Virus record (IMG/VR): IMGVR_UViG_3300025723_001543 | Location: 93,307 to 157,306 of that record | Direction: 5' to 3' (one strand) | DNA: 64,000 nucleotides | Source: a virus | Lineage: Duplodnaviria > Heunggongvirae > Uroviricota > Caudoviricetes | Part shown: in pieces, positions 16,467-44,761 of the stretch | Numbering within the stretch: position 1 is the first letter of the stretch | Layout: each line of letters opens with the position of its first letter | Translations under genes and position numbers: made by a program | Notes under the pieces: generated by a model | The model's database searches: none | Seen by the model: only the letters and a program-made list of their open reading frames with translations | What the model was told of the DNA's origin: nothing

Positions 16467-16474
16467 TATAAATA
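16467..16474 (+). promoter_or_regulatory. T4-type late promoter TATAAATA for the plus-strand gp4-like operon
   Basis: Exact TATAAATA about 30 nt upstream of ATG 16504. Confidence 0.6.
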
Positions 16475-36537: not shown

Positions 36538-37349
36538 TGATTGGTGGCTCTCCTTTTTACAATTCTCTTTTTAAAAAATATGTGGTAATATTTGGAACTC
36601 TTTTCAATAATATTATGATAGAACGTGTTAGCGATTCTGGTGTTTTAGAACAAACTTTTAAGGTTCCTATTGCTTATGGGCCAAGAGAAAAATTTCTTGC
36701 TCGTGTGGAAGAAAATCCAGATGCATCTGCAGTAACTGCTATAAGATTACCAAGAATGTCTTTTGAGATATCTGGTGTTACTTATGACCCAAGCAGAAAA
36801 TTACAAACAGTAGGCAAGATTGGTTCAAAAAGAGAATTAAATGGAAAAAATACTTATAAAAAAGTATTTAATCCAGTACCTTATAATCTTGGATTTAAAT
36901 TAGATATTATGGTAAAGACAATGGAAGACGGTTTAAGAATCGTAGAGCAAATACTTCCTTATTTTACACCAGAATGGACTGTAAGCGCAAGACTTTTACC
37001 AGATTATGATAATATAACAGATATTCCATTGATTATGGATGGTATGGACATCAGCGATTCATATGAAAGCGATTTTGTTGCTAGAAGAGCACTCATATTT
37101 ACATTAAATTTTACTATGAAATGTTATTTTTATGGTCCTGTAACTGAATCTAAACTTATTAAAATTTCTGATGTTAGAATATATCCTAATCTTACTGCAA
37201 ATAGTGATGTTGCTGATATAAATGTTAGACCGGGACTAACTGCTAATGGAATGCCAACTTCTGATCCATCTTTATCTATACCATTATCTCAAATAGAAGA
37301 GACAGATACATATGGATTTATTGTAACTGTGAGTGAAACATATGGTTAA
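36537..37349 (+). CDS. 15: tail sheath stabiliser / tail completion protein gp15
   Basis: SPFYNSLFKKYVVIFGTLFNNIMIERV and RIVEQILPYFTPEW match T4 gp15 (MFGYFYNSSFRRYATLMGDLFSNIQIKRQ; QIVEQILPYFQPHF). Confidence 0.8.
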   Translation: MIGGSPFYNSLFKKYVVIFGTLFNNIMIERVSDSGVLEQTFKVPIAYGPREKFLARVEENPDASAVTAIRLPRMSFEISGVTYDPSRKLQTVGKIGSKRELNGKNTYKKVFNPVPYNLGFKLDIMVKTMEDGLRIVEQILPYFTPEWTVSARLLPDYDNITDIPLIMDGMDISDSYESDFVARRALIFTLNFTMKCYFYGPVTESKLIKISDVRIYPNLTANSDVADINVRPGLTANGMPTSDPSLSIPLSQIEETDTYGFIVTVSETYG

Positions 37350-37731
37350 TAAAGATGTAATTTCAAATTCATTAGGAATACCACCCATTCCTTCTCCACC
37401 AAATCCTGTATTCTTGCCGTCAAAAGAAAAGAATGACTATGAATATGCTCGTCAGAACATGTATGATATCATAGAAAAAGGTCAATCTGCATTAGAAGAT
37501 ATTGTAGATATTGCTAGACAATCAGAATCTCCTAGAGCATATGAAGTAGTCACCAATTTAATTAAAACTTTGGCTGAAACAAATAAAGACCTTATGGAAT
37601 TAGCAAAAAAGAACAAAGAAATTAATAAAGCTGATAGTAGCAATGAAGGTAATAAAACAGTCAACAACAATTTATTTGTTGGTTCTTCTTCTGAGTTATT
37701 GAAGATGATTAGGTCTGATTATAATGAATAG
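37333..37731 (+). CDS. 16: terminase small subunit gp16
   Basis: DYEYARQNMYDIIEKGQSALEDIVDIARQSESPRAYEVVTNLIKTLAETNKDLMEL aligns with T4 gp16 ([56 protein letters not shown]). Confidence 0.8.
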   Translation: MKHMVNKDVISNSLGIPPIPSPPNPVFLPSKEKNDYEYARQNMYDIIEKGQSALEDIVDIARQSESPRAYEVVTNLIKTLAETNKDLMELAKKNKEINKADSSNEGNKTVNNNLFVGSSSELLKMIRSDYNE

Positions 37732-38608
37732 TACAAATGAAGTATATCTTGGTAATATAAACTTAAAGCGTAAAGGTGTCCAACTAGAATTTTCAAAAGA
37801 ACAAATTTTAGAATATATAAAGTGCGCCAATGATGTAAATTATTTTTGTGAGAATTATGTTAAGATCGTGAGTATTGATAAAGGACTCGTTTCTTTTAGT
37901 CCTTATCAATATCAAAAAAGAATGTTTAAAGTATTTGATGACAACCGTTTTACAATATGTAAAATGCCTCGTCAGGTGGGGAAAACAACAGGTGTTGTTG
38001 GGTATATGCTTCATAAAATTCTTTTCAATGAAAATTATAATATTGCAGTTTTGGCTAATAAACAAATTCAATCAAAAGAAATTCTTTCTCGAATTCAACT
38101 TGCATATGAATGGTTGCCCAAATGGATGCAGCAAGGCATTATTCAATGGAATAGAGGAAATATCGAATTGGAAAATGGTTCTAAAATACTTGCAGCTGCC
38201 ACTTCATCATCTGCTATTCGTGGTCAATCTTATAATCTAATTTATCTTGATGAGTTTGCATTCGTTCCCAGAAATATTCAAGACACATTTTTTGCTTCAG
38301 TATTCCCAACAATTTCTTCTGGTAACACTTCTAAATTATTAATAACTTCCACACCAAATGGTATGAATTTATTTTATAAAATTTGGATGGACTCTGTTAA
38401 TAGTGAAAATTCTTATGCCCGTGTTGATGTTCATTGGTCAGATGTTCCCGGCAGAGACGAAGCATGGAAAGTAGAAACTATTCGAAATACTTCTGTTGAT
38501 CAATTTCGTCAAGAGTTTGAATGTTTAGACGGTGATACAGAAATTAATATTTTAATAGATAACATTTCCAAAAAAGTTGCAATCAAAGAAATTATAAATA
38601 TAATATGA
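37724..38608 (+). CDS. 17: terminase large subunit gp17, N-terminal (ATPase) fragment fused to a 28-aa N-intein
   Basis: Walker A RQVGKTT (T4 SRQLGKTT). Extein ends ...SVDQFRQEFE (T4 ...LAQFRQEHTAAFE), then CLDGDTEINILIDNISKKVAIKEIINII-stop, i.e. intein block A (C-L-x-x-D-T-x-I). Confidence 0.85.
   Translation: MNSTNEVYLGNINLKRKGVQLEFSKEQILEYIKCANDVNYFCENYVKIVSIDKGLVSFSPYQYQKRMFKVFDDNRFTICKMPRQVGKTTGVVGYMLHKILFNENYNIAVLANKQIQSKEILSRIQLAYEWLPKWMQQGIIQWNRGNIELENGSKILAAATSSSAIRGQSYNLIYLDEFAFVPRNIQDTFFASVFPTISSGNTSKLLITSTPNGMNLFYKIWMDSVNSENSYARVDVHWSDVPGRDEAWKVETIRNTSVDQFRQEFECLDGDTEINILIDNISKKVAIKEIINII
38522..38605 (+). other. N-terminal half of atypically split intein (Int-N, 28 codons starting with Cys)
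   Basis: TGT at 38522 lies in frame with the terminase ATPase fragment. CLDGDTEI motif; stop codon 38606-38608. Confidence 0.75.
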
Positions 38609-38624
38609 ATGCAATTTTATAGGA

Positions 38625-39194
38625 TTGAATTATATGCATTATAGAAAAATTTGGGAAAATACACACGGAAAAATACCAACTGATGAAAATGGGTTTTCTT
38701 ATGAAATACATCATATAGATGGTAATCATAAAAATAATAACATAGAAAATTTACAATTAGTTACAATAAGAGAACATTTCGATATTCATTTACAGCAAGA
38801 AGATTGGTTTGCAGCTGCATTAATTGCTAAAAGAATTGGATTTGGTCCAGATTATTCTTCAAATTTACAAAAAGGAAAGAAAAGACCAAATATTGGTGGA
38901 GTTTCAAAAGGAACAGTTCCGTGGAATAAAGGGAAAAAATATTCTTTTTCTGAAGAAGTTAGAAACAACAGAAAAGGTAAAAGATTTGGAAAAGTTAAAA
39001 TTACTGATCATGAATGTTGTTTAATTTTGAAAAAATATAATAATAAAATTCCTTTAAATGGTGTAGGTGATATATCAAAAAATGGAAGAAAAATTACTTA
39101 TGAAAGAGTTTTTTCTAAAGAATTTCATAAAGAATATAACGTAACTGAATCACAATTATATAATATAATTACAGGAAAACGAAATGTTCTTTAA
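38625..39194 (+). CDS. free-standing HNH homing endonuclease between the terminase halves (likely ATG start at 38634; track start 38625 is TTG)
   Basis: EIHHIDGNHKNNNIENLQLVTIREHFDIH is an HNH motif. Its frame differs from both terminase fragments, and its 3' end overlaps the C-intein ORF start by 11 nt. Confidence 0.8.
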   Translation: MNYMHYRKIWENTHGKIPTDENGFSYEIHHIDGNHKNNNIENLQLVTIREHFDIHLQQEDWFAAALIAKRIGFGPDYSSNLQKGKKRPNIGGVSKGTVPWNKGKKYSFSEEVRNNRKGKRFGKVKITDHECCLILKKYNNKIPLNGVGDISKNGRKITYERVFSKEFHKEYNVTESQLYNIITGKRNVL

Positions 39195-39507
39195 AAATAA
39201 TAATACATTAATAGAAACATCTGAAGGGTATTTACCTTTTAAAGGTGTACAAAAAATTAAAAAAAATGGTCAAATTGAAATTCATTTAGAAAACGGCAGT
39301 CAATTAAAATGTTCGCTTACCCACCGAATCATGACTGTAGATGGTTGGAAGAAATCTATTGATCTTAAGAACGACGATATTATCATATGTAAAAACGAAA
39401 AATCTAAGATATTTTTTCTAGATTACAAAGAGGGAGAATTTGAATATTTTGATATTGTTGGAGTAGAAAATGAACAGTTTTATGCAAATGATATTTTATC
39501 ACATAAT
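39184..39507 (+). other. C-terminal half of atypically split intein (Int-C, 108 codons; ends ...ILSHN, +1 Cys at 39508)
   Basis: Own ATG with AGGA Shine-Dalgarno 7 nt upstream. Terminal HN | C splice junction. Confidence 0.75.
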
Positions 39508-40317
39508 TGCGAATTCTTAGGTTCTACTAACACTCTTATCCATCCTTCAGTTCTTTCTAGATTAGCATACATGAGACCAATAGACAATCCTCATGAAGTA
39601 AAAATATATAAACATCCAATCAAAGATCATATTTATTCCATAACAGTAGATGTTAGCGAAGGTTTAGGGATGGATTCATCTGCACTCGTAGTAATCGATT
39701 GTTCTACTGTTCCATATGAAGTCGTTGCTACATTTAAAGATTCAAATATATCACAATTAATGTTACCAACATTACTTTCTAATATAGGAAAATATTATAA
39801 CGAAGCAGCTATATTGGTTGAAATAAATATAGGATCACAAGTAGTAAATATTCTACATCAAGATTTAGAATATGAAAATATTGTTATGACAAAAATGAGT
39901 GGTAAAAAAGGCACAGCAATAGGTATATCAGGTAATCAAAATAGATTAGGTATAAAAACAACTCAAGTTACTAAAAGAATAGGATGCGCTAACTTAAAAA
40001 CTCTTATCGAATCTGATAAAATAATTTTAAATGATTATGATATTATAAATGAACTGTCCACATATGCTGTTGATAGAAATACTTACAATGCAGAAGAAGG
40101 ACATCATGACGATTTGGTAATGTGCATGGTTCTTTTTGCTTGGATGGCAAGTCAAAATTATTTTAAAGATGTTTCAAATACAGATATCCGTAGACGAATT
40201 GAAGAAGAAGTTGAAGAAGATTTCACACCTTTTGGTATTATACATGATGGCAGGGAAGAAGAATTTAACGATAAAGTAATGAGTGAAAACGAGTTTGAAA
40301 AATTTTTACTAAATTGA
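39184..40317 (+). CDS. 17: 108-aa C-intein fused to terminase large subunit C-terminal (nuclease) fragment
   Basis: ORF opens MFFKNNN...EYFDIVGVENEQFYANDILSHN followed by CEFLGSTNTLIHP. Intein blocks F/G end in HN with +1 Cys. The extein then continues in register with T4 gp17 (FEGTSGTLI...), with HDDLVMCMVLFAWM matching T4 HDDLVMSLVIFGWL. Confidence 0.85.
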   Translation: MFFKNNNTLIETSEGYLPFKGVQKIKKNGQIEIHLENGSQLKCSLTHRIMTVDGWKKSIDLKNDDIIICKNEKSKIFFLDYKEGEFEYFDIVGVENEQFYANDILSHNCEFLGSTNTLIHPSVLSRLAYMRPIDNPHEVKIYKHPIKDHIYSITVDVSEGLGMDSSALVVIDCSTVPYEVVATFKDSNISQLMLPTLLSNIGKYYNEAAILVEINIGSQVVNILHQDLEYENIVMTKMSGKKGTAIGISGNQNRLGIKTTQVTKRIGCANLKTLIESDKIILNDYDIINELSTYAVDRNTYNAEEGHHDDLVMCMVLFAWMASQNYFKDVSNTDIRRRIEEEVEEDFTPFGIIHDGREEEFNDKVMSENEFEKFLLN

Positions 40318-40322
40318 GTTTT

Positions 40323-40330
40323 TATAAATA
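40323..40330 (+). promoter_or_regulatory. T4-type late promoter TATAAATA upstream of sheath gene
   Basis: Exact octamer 47 nt upstream of ATG 40377. Confidence 0.45.
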
Positions 40331-40376
40331 ATCATACGAAATAATATGTGATTTTTATTATAAAAAGGAGAAAACA

Positions 40377-42509
40377 ATGCCATTTCAAGTTAGTCCCGGC
40401 GTTAACGTTTCTGAAATTGATCTAACAACCATTGTTCCTGCCGTTTCTTCAACTTTTGGAGCAACTGCTGGAGTATTCAAATGGGGTCCAATAGAAGACA
40501 GAGTACTTGTGTCATCTGAGGACGAGTTAGTATCAGTTTTTGGAAAACCAAACGCAAATAATTACGAAACCTTCTTCACAGCTGCAAATTTCTTGGCATA
40601 TGGCAATCAGCTATATGTATCAAGAGCAGCTTCAGCCTCCGCATATAATGCCGTCGCTAATGTTGGATCAACAGGTGTAGGTGGAAATACTGTTGTTATT
40701 AAAAATCTTCATGATTTTGAAGCACAATATACTACATTAAATGAAGCTGGTGGTTCAAATGCTTATAGCAATGTTTATTTTGTTGCTAAGTATGCTGGTG
40801 ATGTTGGCAATTCTATAAGAATTTCTATCTGCCCAACAGAAACTGCTTATGCAAGTCAACTTATGGCTTATAATGGGTCAAATGTTGCAATTCAAATTTC
40901 TAATACATATTTTTCATTCAATATTCCAGTAGGATCAATGGAAGCTAATATAGTTTTCCAAAGTGTCACTGACGTAAATCTTGCTCCTTCTATGGCAGTT
41001 GATATGAAGAATAACATTAACATCGGTGATGTGTTTCTTGTAGGTAATACTTCTACTGGAACACAATACTTAACTGTTAGTGCTGTTGGTGGAACAACTA
41101 GTGTTAGTGTTGGTTCAGGAATTAATTCTAGCTTCCAGATAATGTTTAATGAAACTTATAGACAGAAGATGGATATTACAATTTCTGGTACTGCAAATAG
41201 CATCACTGGAAATTATTATGGCACAACTTTAGCCAATAAGTATTGGGAATTTCACAATGCTGTTGATATGGCTCCAGGAACATCTGGATATGTATCATCA
41301 AGAAATGCAAACAACATGGTTATGGATCAAGTCCATATCGTTGTTGTAGATCAAAATGGTAAGTTTACTGGTATTCCCGGTGAAATTCTAGAAGTTTGGC
41401 CAAATCTTTCAATTGCAACTGATGCAAAGGGCGAACAAGGCGGTTCTATTTTCTATAGAGACGTTCTTAATATGAGTTCAAAGTATGTATGGTCTGCAAA
41501 GGACATACTATCAACAACTCCACGCAATGCTGATGATACTCTTCTTGCACCATCTTTAACTAACAATCTTTCTTTGAATTTTGCTAGTGGCGCAGATGGT
41601 GATCCAGAATCTACTATTGCTGTATCAAAGTTAATGACTGCATATGACAAGTATAAGTCATCAGAAGATGTAGATGTTTCTTTGATTCTTGGTGGTAAGG
41701 CAAGAGGAAATATTGGTGAAGTACTCGCAAATTACATCATCGATAATATCTGCGAATATAGGAAAGATTGTGTAGCATTTATTTCACCTGATCTTTCTGC
41801 AGTAGTAAATGTTCCCGGTCATGAGCTAGATAATGTTACAGCTTTTAGAAATGCATTGACTTCAACTTCATATGCAGTTCTTGATTCTGGTTATAAGTAT
41901 CAATATGATAAGTATAATGACACATATCGTTGGGTTCCTCTTAATGGTGATATTGCTGGTCTTTGTGTTCGTACAGATAATGTTCGTGATGCATGGTGGT
42001 CTCCAGCTGGATTCAACAGAGGCATTATCAAGAATGTTGTAAAGCTTGCATACAATCCTGATAAGGCAAATCGTGATGTTCTTTATCGTAATGGTGTAAA
42101 CCCTGTAGTCAATTTCCCCGGTCAGGGAACAGTTCTATATGGTGATAAGACCTTGCTTGCAAGACCATCTGCATTTGATCGTATCAATGTACGCAGACTA
42201 TTCATTGTGCTTGAGAAGGCAATTGCGATTGCTGCTAAGTCAACTCTATTTGAATTCAACGATGATTTTACAAGAGCTTCATTCCGCAATCTTGTAGAAC
42301 CATATCTTCGTGATATTCAGGGTCGTCGTGGAATCTATGATTTCAGAGTAATTTGTGATACTACAAATAACACTCCTGAAGTTATTGATGCAAACGAATT
42401 TAGAGGTGACATTTATATCAAGCCCGCACGTTCAATCAATTTCATTCAGCTCAACTTCGTTGCAGTACGCACTGGTGTCGAGTTTACTGAAATTGTTGGC
42501 AAGTTTTAA
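40377..42509 (+). CDS. 18: tail sheath protein gp18
   Basis: N-terminus VSPGVNVSEIDLTT...AGVFKWGPIEDRVLVSSEDELVSVFGKP...FFTAANFLAYGNQLYVSRA aligns with T4 gp18 (LSPGIELKETTVQS...AGKFQWGPAFQIKQVTNEVDLVNTFGQP...YFMSAMNFLQYGNDLRVVRA). Confidence 0.9.
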   Translation: MPFQVSPGVNVSEIDLTTIVPAVSSTFGATAGVFKWGPIEDRVLVSSEDELVSVFGKPNANNYETFFTAANFLAYGNQLYVSRAASASAYNAVANVGSTGVGGNTVVIKNLHDFEAQYTTLNEAGGSNAYSNVYFVAKYAGDVGNSIRISICPTETAYASQLMAYNGSNVAIQISNTYFSFNIPVGSMEANIVFQSVTDVNLAPSMAVDMKNNINIGDVFLVGNTSTGTQYLTVSAVGGTTSVSVGSGINSSFQIMFNETYRQKMDITISGTANSITGNYYGTTLANKYWEFHNAVDMAPGTSGYVSSRNANNMVMDQVHIVVVDQNGKFTGIPGEILEVWPNLSIATDAKGEQGGSIFYRDVLNMSSKYVWSAKDILSTTPRNADDTLLAPSLTNNLSLNFASGADGDPESTIAVSKLMTAYDKYKSSEDVDVSLILGGKARGNIGEVLANYIIDNICEYRKDCVAFISPDLSAVVNVPGHELDNVTAFRNALTSTSYAVLDSGYKYQYDKYNDTYRWVPLNGDIAGLCVRTDNVRDAWWSPAGFNRGIIKNVVKLAYNPDKANRDVLYRNGVNPVVNFPGQGTVLYGDKTLLARPSAFDRINVRRLFIVLEKAIAIAAKSTLFEFNDDFTRASFRNLVEPYLRDIQGRRGIYDFRVICDTTNNTPEVIDANEFRGDIYIKPARSINFIQLNFVAVRTGVEFTEIVGKF

Positions 42510-44753: not shown

Positions 44754-44761
44754 TATAAATA
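44754..44761 (+). promoter_or_regulatory. T4-type late promoter TATAAATA downstream of portal gene
   Basis: Exact octamer 30 nt upstream of ATG 44792. Confidence 0.5.

Follow-up and report, generated by a model that had tools for sequence, protein, structure and literature searches.

Does a large terminase (TerL) gene that is interrupted by a free-standing endonuclease gene still encode one complete protein, and how is such an interruption acquired and kept? This question is raised by a locus in the virus record IMGVR_UViG_3300025723_001543 of IMG/VR, of which positions 93,307 to 157,306 were analysed; this whole stretch of 64,000 nucleotides (nt) is termed the window. Three open reading frames (ORFs) of this locus, which are in frames 2, 0 and 1, encode the N-terminal part of TerL (TerL-N) followed by a short N-terminal intein segment (Int-N), an HNH homing endonuclease, and a C-terminal intein segment (Int-C) followed by the C-terminal part of TerL (TerL-C). 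With a probability of roughly 90%, the block between the two TerL parts (exteins) is an HNH-split mini-intein inserted in TerL at ...QEFE/CEF... (a slash marks the splice junction), and the locus is a fractured gene of a marine T4-like myovirus, for which a mechanism is proposed below. The features on which this reading is based are as follows.

37724-38608, plus strand: ORF for TerL-N and Int-N, 294 residues, ending in ...SVDQFRQEFE/CLDGDTEINILIDNISKKVAIKEIINII and a stop codon
37724-38521, plus strand: TerL N-extein with the ATPase domain, 266 residues, ending in ...FRQEFE (Pfam Terminase_6N, E-value 2.1e-22)
38522-38608, plus strand: Int-N, 28 residues (CLDGDTEINILIDNISKKVAIKEIINII) and the stop codon, with block A and the nucleophile Cys1 (aligned to 6dsl_A, CatN)
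38634-39194, plus strand: free-standing HNH homing endonuclease gene, 186 residues (Pfam HNH_3, E-value 9.6e-13; PHROG 12324, intron-like endonuclease, E-value 9.7e-21)
39184-40317, plus strand: ORF for Int-C and TerL-C, 377 residues, starting with MFFKNNN... and then reading ...FYANDILSHN/CEFLGSTNTLI
39184-39507, plus strand: Int-C, 108 residues, with blocks B (SLTH), F (FDIVGV) and G (ILSHN) (6dsl_B, CatC, E-value 5.1e-7)
39508-40317, plus strand: TerL C-extein with the nuclease domain, 269 residues, starting with CEFLGSTNTL and the nucleophile Cys+1 (Pfam Terminase_6C, E-value 1.8e-12)
38522-39507, plus strand: whole mobile cassette (Int-N, spacer, HNH gene and Int-C), 986 base pairs (bp) (divergence step; empty site in P0008 and L013)

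The coordinates and sequences quoted for this locus in the initial annotation are all correct, as judged from the ORF map and from a re-reading of the sequence, and the two TerL halves that it had named are recovered as Terminase_6N in the first ORF (E-value 2e-22) and Terminase_6C in the third (E-value 2e-12). The coding part of Int-N without its stop codon is 38522-38605. The stop of the HNH gene overlaps the start of Int-C by 11 nt, and the Int-C ORF has its own AGGA ribosome site, which is located within the 3' end of the HNH gene. Because the inserted block of 986 bp is not divisible by 3, the locus does not contain an in-frame contiguous intein.

Identity of the intein

The best match of the fused Int-N and Int-C sequence in the PDB is 6dsl_B, the 'Consensus engineered intein CatC' (phmmer, E-value 5.1e-7, about 30% identity). 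Int-N and the preceding extein are aligned to 6dsl_A, CatN, at its start EFE-A-LSGDT (CatN has C1A), so that the Cys1 codon of the window (38522-38524), in C-L-D-G-D-T, is placed at position 1 of CatN. The residues of a class 1 intein are present, namely S-L-T-H in block B, F-D-I-V-G-V in block F, and S-H-N/C at the C-terminal junction. Cys1, the block-B His, the block-F Asp, the His-Asn pair and Cys+1 are invariant in nine reconstructed inteins, down to 27% identity; His, Asp and His-Asn are likewise invariant in 29 Int-C sequences, and alignments A1 and A2 show no variation at H81, D124, H141, N142 and C143. The intein block motifs proposed in the initial annotation are matched by profiles, with both scores under the curated cut-offs: the fused intein matches Pfam Intein_splicing with an E-value of 1.4e-6 and 28.6 bits (cut-off 35.8 bits), and TIGR01445 intein_Nterm with an E-value of 2.4e-4 and 22.0 bits (cut-off 24.5 bits). 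The ORF at 39184-40317 alone gives a weak Intein_splicing match besides Terminase_6C in Pfam.

The AlphaFold model built with 28 Int-C homologues has a predicted local distance difference test score (pLDDT) of about 90 over Int-C, and the single-sequence AlphaFold model of the fused intein is poor (pLDDT 54). Among the best 50 of the 57 Foldseek matches at E-values of 0.001 or less (these 50 all have E-values of 4.1e-4 or less), the top match is 6DSL_B, and the other 49 are all inteins or intein-like Hint domains.

Predicted spliced product and excision site

Deletion of 38522-39507 gives a predicted TerL of 535 residues with the junction FRQEFE/CEFLGSTNTL. An intein-less metagenomic TerL, P0008, is also 535 residues long and is 90% identical to it over the C-extein, and its sequence at the site, ...SVDQFRQEFECEFLGSTNTL (also given as ...SVDQFRQEFECEFLGSTNTLIHPSVLSRL), is exactly that of the predicted ligated junction. 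P0010 and L013 have a junction identical to the predicted one as well and an empty site at the DNA level, the intein-less TerL site of L013 reading GACAAGAATTTGAG/TGCGAATTTTTAGG. The predicted spliced product aligns with T4 gp17 from end to end without a break (E-value 6.7e-105), and the extein junction aligns with gp17 as initially described, with QFRQEFECEFLGSTNTLI opposite QFRQEHTAAFEGTSGTLI. Thus, removal of the intein restores the host protein, as judged from the junction identity with intein-less alleles and from the continuous gp17 alignment. The ATPase domain of T4 gp17 (2o0h) is aligned up to residue 272 of the spliced product and the nuclease domain of RB49 gp17 (3c6a) from residue 274, and therefore the junction at 266/267 is located a few residues before the ATPase/nuclease boundary.

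A break near a domain boundary makes it conceivable that the intein halves are decayed and that the TerL fragments assemble non-covalently without splicing, like the halves of Aeh1 NrdA; intein-free endonuclease-fractured genes do exist and function (PMC2677866). However, the catalytic residues of the intein would then hardly be expected to be invariant down to 27% identity, and Int-C would hardly be expected to have a ratio of nonsynonymous to synonymous substitution rates (omega) of 0.02-0.3, as it does for the pairs with non-saturated synonymous sites (L001, L003, L006 and L008). In addition, homologues at the same site splice in vitro (PMC11766414). Assembly without splicing is improbable, although it is the alternative that survives best, and the intein of the window is predicted to be active in trans-splicing.

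HNH endonuclease

The HNH protein contains the following two regions.

38703-38789, plus strand: HNH motif, residues approximately 24-52 (invariant catalytic residues)
38880-39170, plus strand: putative DNA-binding half of the HNH protein, residues 83-179 (homology to half of a GIY-YIG protein)

The protein matches HNH_3 with 48 bits (Pfam cut-off 24.8), and its ATG at 38634 is placed where 29 homologues begin with MxYRK. Across 30 sequences the His, Asn and His of the HNH motif do not vary, and the invariant residues of the protein are E24, H26, H27, D29, N34, N39, H48 and H52. The family comprises 166 homologous clusters of 186-211 residues, and every context examined is between TerL halves. 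Its omega is 0.14-0.27 (L001, L003, L006 and L008, with non-saturated synonymous sites). The combination of purifying selection and an invariant catalytic motif indicates that the HNH gene is maintained.

Known DNA-binding modules are matched only weakly by this protein in Pfam (NUMOD3, E-value 0.8; CENP-B_N, E-value 0.14). However, when the window at 38880-39170 is compared with L022 at 2424-2990, the C-terminal approximately 100 residues are 43% identical to the C-terminal half of a GIY-YIG protein (E-value 1e-20). The HNH and GIY-YIG endonucleases thus look like enzymes that have a common DNA-binding half and a swapped nuclease domain, and that occupy the same place in allelic inteins.

Recent transfer of the cassette

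The window and L001 are colinear and gap-free over the region. They differ at 248 of 1608 nt in the exteins (84.6% identity), but at only 32 of 986 nt in the cassette (96.8% identity; Fisher p 2e-25). The step is located at the junctions, because the last difference in the left extein is 18 nt before the N-junction and the first difference in the right extein is 12 nt after the C-junction. The change from 84.6% to 96.8% identity within 12-18 nt indicates that the cassette moved recently as a unit. The exteins have a synonymous divergence (dS) of 0.8-1.3 and the cassette has one of 0.06-0.18, a 5- to 20-fold reduction, which indicates that the contrast is caused by recent transfer and not by protein constraint. 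The presence of the intein is patchy: among the 120 best TerL-C clusters Int-C occurs in about 30, and it is missing from the closest full-length relative. Taken together, the divergence contrast and this patchiness form the footprint that homing of the entire Int-N/HNH/Int-C block, with co-conversion tracts that are very short, would leave. The step in divergence at both ends of the intein accordingly supports the proposal of the initial annotation that the endonuclease mobilises the cassette.

Candidate control elements upstream of the HNH gene

Two candidate control elements overlap the end of Int-N.

38568-38623, plus strand: RNA hairpin (minimum-free-energy structures and arm covariation)
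38593-38600, plus strand: T4-type late-promoter motif TATAAATA in the hairpin loop (position relative to ORF starts)

The TATAAATA motif overlaps the final codons of Int-N; its first nucleotide is 41 nt ahead of the HNH ATG, which leaves a gap of 33 nt between motif and ATG. Of 46 distinct relatives, 41 have an exact TATAAATA shortly before the HNH gene, placed either within Int-N or in the spacer. In the window, the distance from the end of the motif to the start of an ORF of 80 residues or more is 28-47 nt for nine of the ten plus-strand copies; the sheath gene is one of these ORFs. The TATAAATA copies upstream of ORFs are evidently T4-type late promoters, as judged from their positions, and effectively provide a putative promoter map for this phage; the copy upstream of the HNH gene probably serves as the promoter of this gene. 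The other plus-strand copies near ORF starts are at 16467, 25515, 32610, 35774, 40323, 43095, 48979 and 50072, and the exception, at 44754, is 226 nt from the next ORF.

The 5' arm of the hairpin consists of Int-N codons (KKVAI), and the 3' arm begins at the stop codon of Int-N and reaches the GG in the Shine-Dalgarno sequence of the HNH gene. The minimum-free-energy structures are consistent in the window, L001, L003, L006, L008 and L009. RNAalifold predicts no pairs on the MAFFT alignment of the hairpin region, in which the 3' arms are out of register, and therefore a duplex-energy permutation test was used. The sum of the duplex energies of the arms with their own partners is -211 kcal/mol, compared with -162 +/- 11 kcal/mol when the arms are permuted between loci; a single one of the 5000 permutations attains the energy observed.

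The position of the HNH gene within a terminase operon, together with the purifying selection and uniform length of its family, would also be accounted for if the HNH protein were a packaging accessory of the HK97 gp74 type, which neighbours terminase genes in HK97-like phages, or were domesticated for inter-phage competition, and not a homing endonuclease. However, in close relatives with an intact TerL (L013, L014 and the P0008 contig), the region shown includes the genes for TerS, TerL and the sheath but no HNH gene; the HNH gene co-transfers with the intein halves, and split variants without it are found (L005, L011 and L081). A GIY-YIG endonuclease that occupies this position in a different phage lineage shares its putative DNA-binding half, and the control elements of the HNH gene are those of T-even homing endonucleases. 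A packaging or competition role is therefore judged to be slightly less probable still than assembly without splicing, and the HNH protein is best regarded as a homing endonuclease.

Layout in relatives

The HNH-type loci from protein look-ups comprise 14 retrieved contigs, among them L001-L003, L006-L009 and L015-L020, and one further place that is listed without DNA. Every HNH-type locus examined has the same three-ORF layout, with HNH identity down to 45%, and the same layout is found in 37 further distinct loci among 80 fetched from IMG/VR; the arrangement is far beyond chance. In the examined loci, every ORF is equipped with a start, a stop and an AGGA site that are its own. The frame patterns of the relatives vary (2,0,1, 2,1,2 or 0,1,2), and in L006 both TerL halves are in one frame and the HNH gene is in another. 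Int-N is 24-40 residues and Int-C mostly 104-109 residues long in the relatives, compared with 28 and 108 residues in the window. The endonuclease gene overlaps Int-C by 7-25 nt in most relatives with a locatable Int-C start, and essentially not at all in L137 and L140. A search with the fused intein finds many proteins of 360-415 residues that begin with Int-C. Among the 120 best TerL-C matches, no protein fuses the parts, and none longer than 402 residues covers Int-C plus the C-extein.

Three abutting or overlapping ORFs in three frames could in principle result from insertion or deletion errors of sequencing or assembly in a contiguous intein with an in-frame HNH domain. However, the layout recurs in all examined HNH-type loci from independent assemblies at 45-97% identity and with differing frame patterns, which excludes a frameshift artefact; the separate ATG, stop and AGGA site of each ORF, the single frame of the L006 halves, the cassette length of 986 bp and the lack, among the 120 best matches, of a protein longer than 402 residues that covers Int-C plus the C-extein also argue against this explanation, the likelihood of which is negligible. 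The initial conclusion that the three ORFs are not one contiguous mini-intein therefore stands. A group I intron with an HNH ORF that is removed from RNA, as known in T-even phages (PMC2988022), has a similarly vanishing likelihood, because no Rfam family is matched in 37300-40500 at E-values up to 1 and recognisable intein blocks, read in the frame of the adjoining extein, are encoded on both sides of the HNH gene.

Contiguous mini-inteins are present in TerL at the same site in P0298 (...AQEYE/CVTGDT...SHN/CSFLGSSNSLI) and also in P0312 and P0340; they are about 30% identical, and the +1 residue of P0340 is Ser. These contiguous alleles presumably represent the pre-invasion state of the Dassa model. 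Split forms without an endonuclease gene are L005, L081 and Vibrio phage EniLVp02 (L011). L005 (3126-5122) carries the same intein subfamily without the endonuclease; its Int-N is 36 residues long and ends in ...WETQCSNLIVN, and its TerL-N/Int-N ORF overlaps the start of the Int-C/TerL-C ORF by 25 nt.

Gene neighbourhood and source

A small terminase gene precedes the locus, and a tail sheath gene follows it.

37333-37731, plus strand: TerS small terminase gene (PHROG 445, E-value 2.9e-38; Pfam DNA_Packaging, E-value 5.6e-8)

The stop of TerS overlaps the start codon of the TerL-N ORF. Related contigs have the T4 gene order gp13-gp14-gp15-TerS-TerL-sheath-tube-portal. A megablast search of 20 kb of the window against INPHARED reveals no close relative among deposited phages, and therefore the source phage is uncultured; it is an AT-rich marine T4-like myovirus. 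The G+C content of the cassette is 0.23-0.27, compared with 0.29-0.33 in the flanking TerL exteins (window 38450-39500).

Comparison with known systems

AceL-TerL was reportedly described by Thiel et al. in 2014, and the 'Cat' consensus by Stevens et al. in 2018. Fractured genes were defined by Dassa et al. 2009 (PMC2677866), whose loci include one gp17-like terminase locus that is split 'at an unusual point' with a C-part of 122 residues. GOS-TerL, with an Int-N of 37 residues, is the terminase intein of that locus, and AceL-TerL has an Int-N of 25 residues; both trans-splice in vitro, and the consensus 'Cat' has been solved as 6DSL (PMC11766414). The statement of the initial annotation that TerL split inteins with a short Int-N are already known is confirmed by these two examples. 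The atypically split TerL inteins resemble the intein of the window in the host protein, in the insertion site (...EFE/CE(F)), and in the break after approximately 25-37 residues, as a result of which Int-N is short and Int-C exceeds 100 residues. AceL-TerL and the window intein both use Cys1 and Cys+1 for catalysis.

The structure of the Cat consensus, 6DSL, is the best match of the window intein by both sequence and fold. At the insertion site, CatN reads EFE-A(C1A)LSGDT and CatC ends with SHA-CE, Cat-type loci of IMG/VR read EFE/CLSGDT...SHN/CEFLG, and the window reads FRQEFE/CLDGDT...SHN/CEFLG. However, Int-C is only about 30% identical between Cat and the window, the Cat-type loci have a different gene context, whereas the host of the window intein is a T4-like myovirus with the gp13-gp20 order, and the intervening gene encodes an HNH protein in the window but a GIY-YIG protein in the Cat-type loci. 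This GIY-YIG link is deduced from IMG/VR loci found with the CatC sequence. The search gives 122 Cat-type loci, and in the 14 that were inspected the intervening ORF is a 189-residue GIY-YIG ORF in ten, is broken in two in L072, and is absent in three. In L072 (2424-2993) the GIY-YIG gene is present as two ORFs of 95 and 78 residues, an apparent stage of decay, and in L081, L084 and L099 it is entirely lost.

The fractured genes gp41-1, NrdJ-1 and IMPDH-1 have the same order on one strand as the window (N-half/Int-N, endonuclease, Int-C/C-half), but the proportions are inverted in the window. Of 16 fractured-gene loci, 15 contain hairpins, which in ten cases carry TATAAATA, and the endonucleases of these loci are only of the types GIY-YIG or Vsr-like (Dassa et al. 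2009, PMC2677866). As in the window, the 3' end of the endonuclease gene overlaps the downstream start and a TATAAATA hairpin is located upstream of the endonuclease gene. A late promoter in or next to a hairpin that sequesters the ribosome site of the endonuclease gene is known for I-TevI, segB and Aeh1 mobE (PMC2988022). In contrast to these systems, the host operon in the window is itself late, so that the hairpin would damp translation and not delay it. An HNH endonuclease gene splits an essential gene of a T4-like phage both in Aeh1 nrdA-mobE and in the window; however, no intein is present in Aeh1 NrdA, the halves of which are held together non-covalently, whereas the window has intein halves. 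The PolB locus of the Pseudomonas jumbo phage MIJ3 (PMC6892783) also has a free-standing HNH gene between putative split-intein halves, but in another host protein and with a canonical split site, at which blocks A, N2, B and N4 are in the N-half.

Other TerL inteins

Atypically split TerL inteins are present, unannotated, in two cultured members of the Straboviridae, Serratia phage 92A1 (L012, OR088902.1 100654-103616) and Vibrio phage EniLVp02 (L011, PP209424.1 82412-84698). Cultured, viable phages thus carry the same kind of split TerL. The order in 92A1 is TerL-N (...FKQEH/CIARDS..., with an Int-N of 37 residues), a 236-residue SegE-like GIY-YIG ORF, and a 'hypothetical protein' that is Int-C plus TerL-C (...THN/CAEFHGTSGTLI); its junction is shifted by one residue relative to that of the window. 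EniLVp02 has the two TerL halves and no endonuclease.

A second hotspot of TerL inteins is located in the ATPase domain (L019/L020 1028-3004, L022 520-2394, and also L035, L046 and L072), and therefore one TerL gene can carry two inteins. Some TerL-N ORFs reach 621-658 residues and include a LAGLIDADG domain. A contiguous intein precedes CDEFA (Walker B) in P0366, and an Int-C located at this second site forms the start of P0312.

In Campylobacter phages of the Eucampyvirinae, such as vB_CcoM-IBB_35 (L010, NC_041833.1 41760-47033), the annotation of the TerL region is that of an interrupted feature, 'similar to terminase large subunit'. A MobE-like homing endonuclease is encoded in this region, along with an Int-C-like segment that is 29-39% identical to Int-C of the window. 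Residues 2-67 of Int-C are also matched at 40-43% identity in Vibrio phages K469, 1.244.A and others (at approximately 1970-2800), by ORFs that are annotated as 'terminase-like family protein' or hypothetical and may be inteins or remnants.

Proposed mechanism and implications

Several results weigh against the reading of this locus as a regulated, trans-splicing fractured gene. Both curated-family scores of the fused intein (28.6 against 35.8 bits and 22.0 against 24.5 bits) are under the cut-offs. AlphaFold models Int-N as a helix with a pLDDT of about 60 and without alignment depth, so that the completed Hedgehog/intein (HINT) fold is a deduction and not part of the model. No solved structure is found by sequence for the HNH family profile when PDB sequences are searched with the protein and the profile. 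The count of TATAAATA over the whole window, 16, is not above chance (11.2 expected), so that the motif is informative only through its placement with respect to ORF starts. The hairpin of the window is weak by itself (-9.9 kcal/mol, z -1.1 against shuffles), and the hairpin regions have no excess stability over windows of the same loci (98 nt, mean z approximately 0); the case for the hairpin therefore rests on arm covariation.

In the proposed mechanism, two polypeptides would be produced, TerL-N/Int-N of 294 residues and Int-C/TerL-C of 377 residues. Int-N would dock into the near-complete Int-C and thereby complete the HINT fold. Class 1 trans-splicing with Cys1, the block-B His, the block-F Asp, His-Asn and Cys+1 would then yield the 535-residue TerL, and the intein would be discarded. 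The HNH protein would cut the intein-less TerL alleles of co-infecting relatives, its presumed target, and repair would copy the whole Int-N/HNH/Int-C block into the cut alleles. Expression of the HNH gene is probably kept low in the manner of T-even phages: the hairpin would pair with the ribosome site on read-through mRNA, and the late promoter in the hairpin loop would give transcripts without the 5' arm.

Each of the principles involved (fractured gene, split TerL intein, control by hairpin and promoter) is already published, and the arrangement is common in metagenomes. The window may represent a distinct HNH-associated subfamily of atypically split TerL inteins, approximately 30% identical to AceL/GOS/Cat, of which the shared putative DNA-binding half, a common module for recognition of the TerL site on which the nuclease domain would have been swapped, and the recent block-homing footprint are seemingly undescribed in the literature searched; the chances for and against this proposal are about even. 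The value of the locus is incremental, for annotation, tool mining and as a model for experiments, and not conceptual, and the additions are modest: a subfamily of approximately 30% identity, a putative DNA-binding half common to HNH and GIY-YIG endonucleases, and unannotated examples in cultured phages. Split inteins with a short Int-N are wanted as protein-ligation tools and few natural ones have been characterised; this locus and its relatives provide a divergent set in genomic context. If the fragments splice efficiently, they would provide a new, possibly orthogonal ligation tool with a short Int-N. For the TerL genes of this group, the locus and its relatives record an empty site, contiguous mini-intein alleles, forms with and without the homing endonuclease gene, a homing footprint, and control in the style of the T-even phages.

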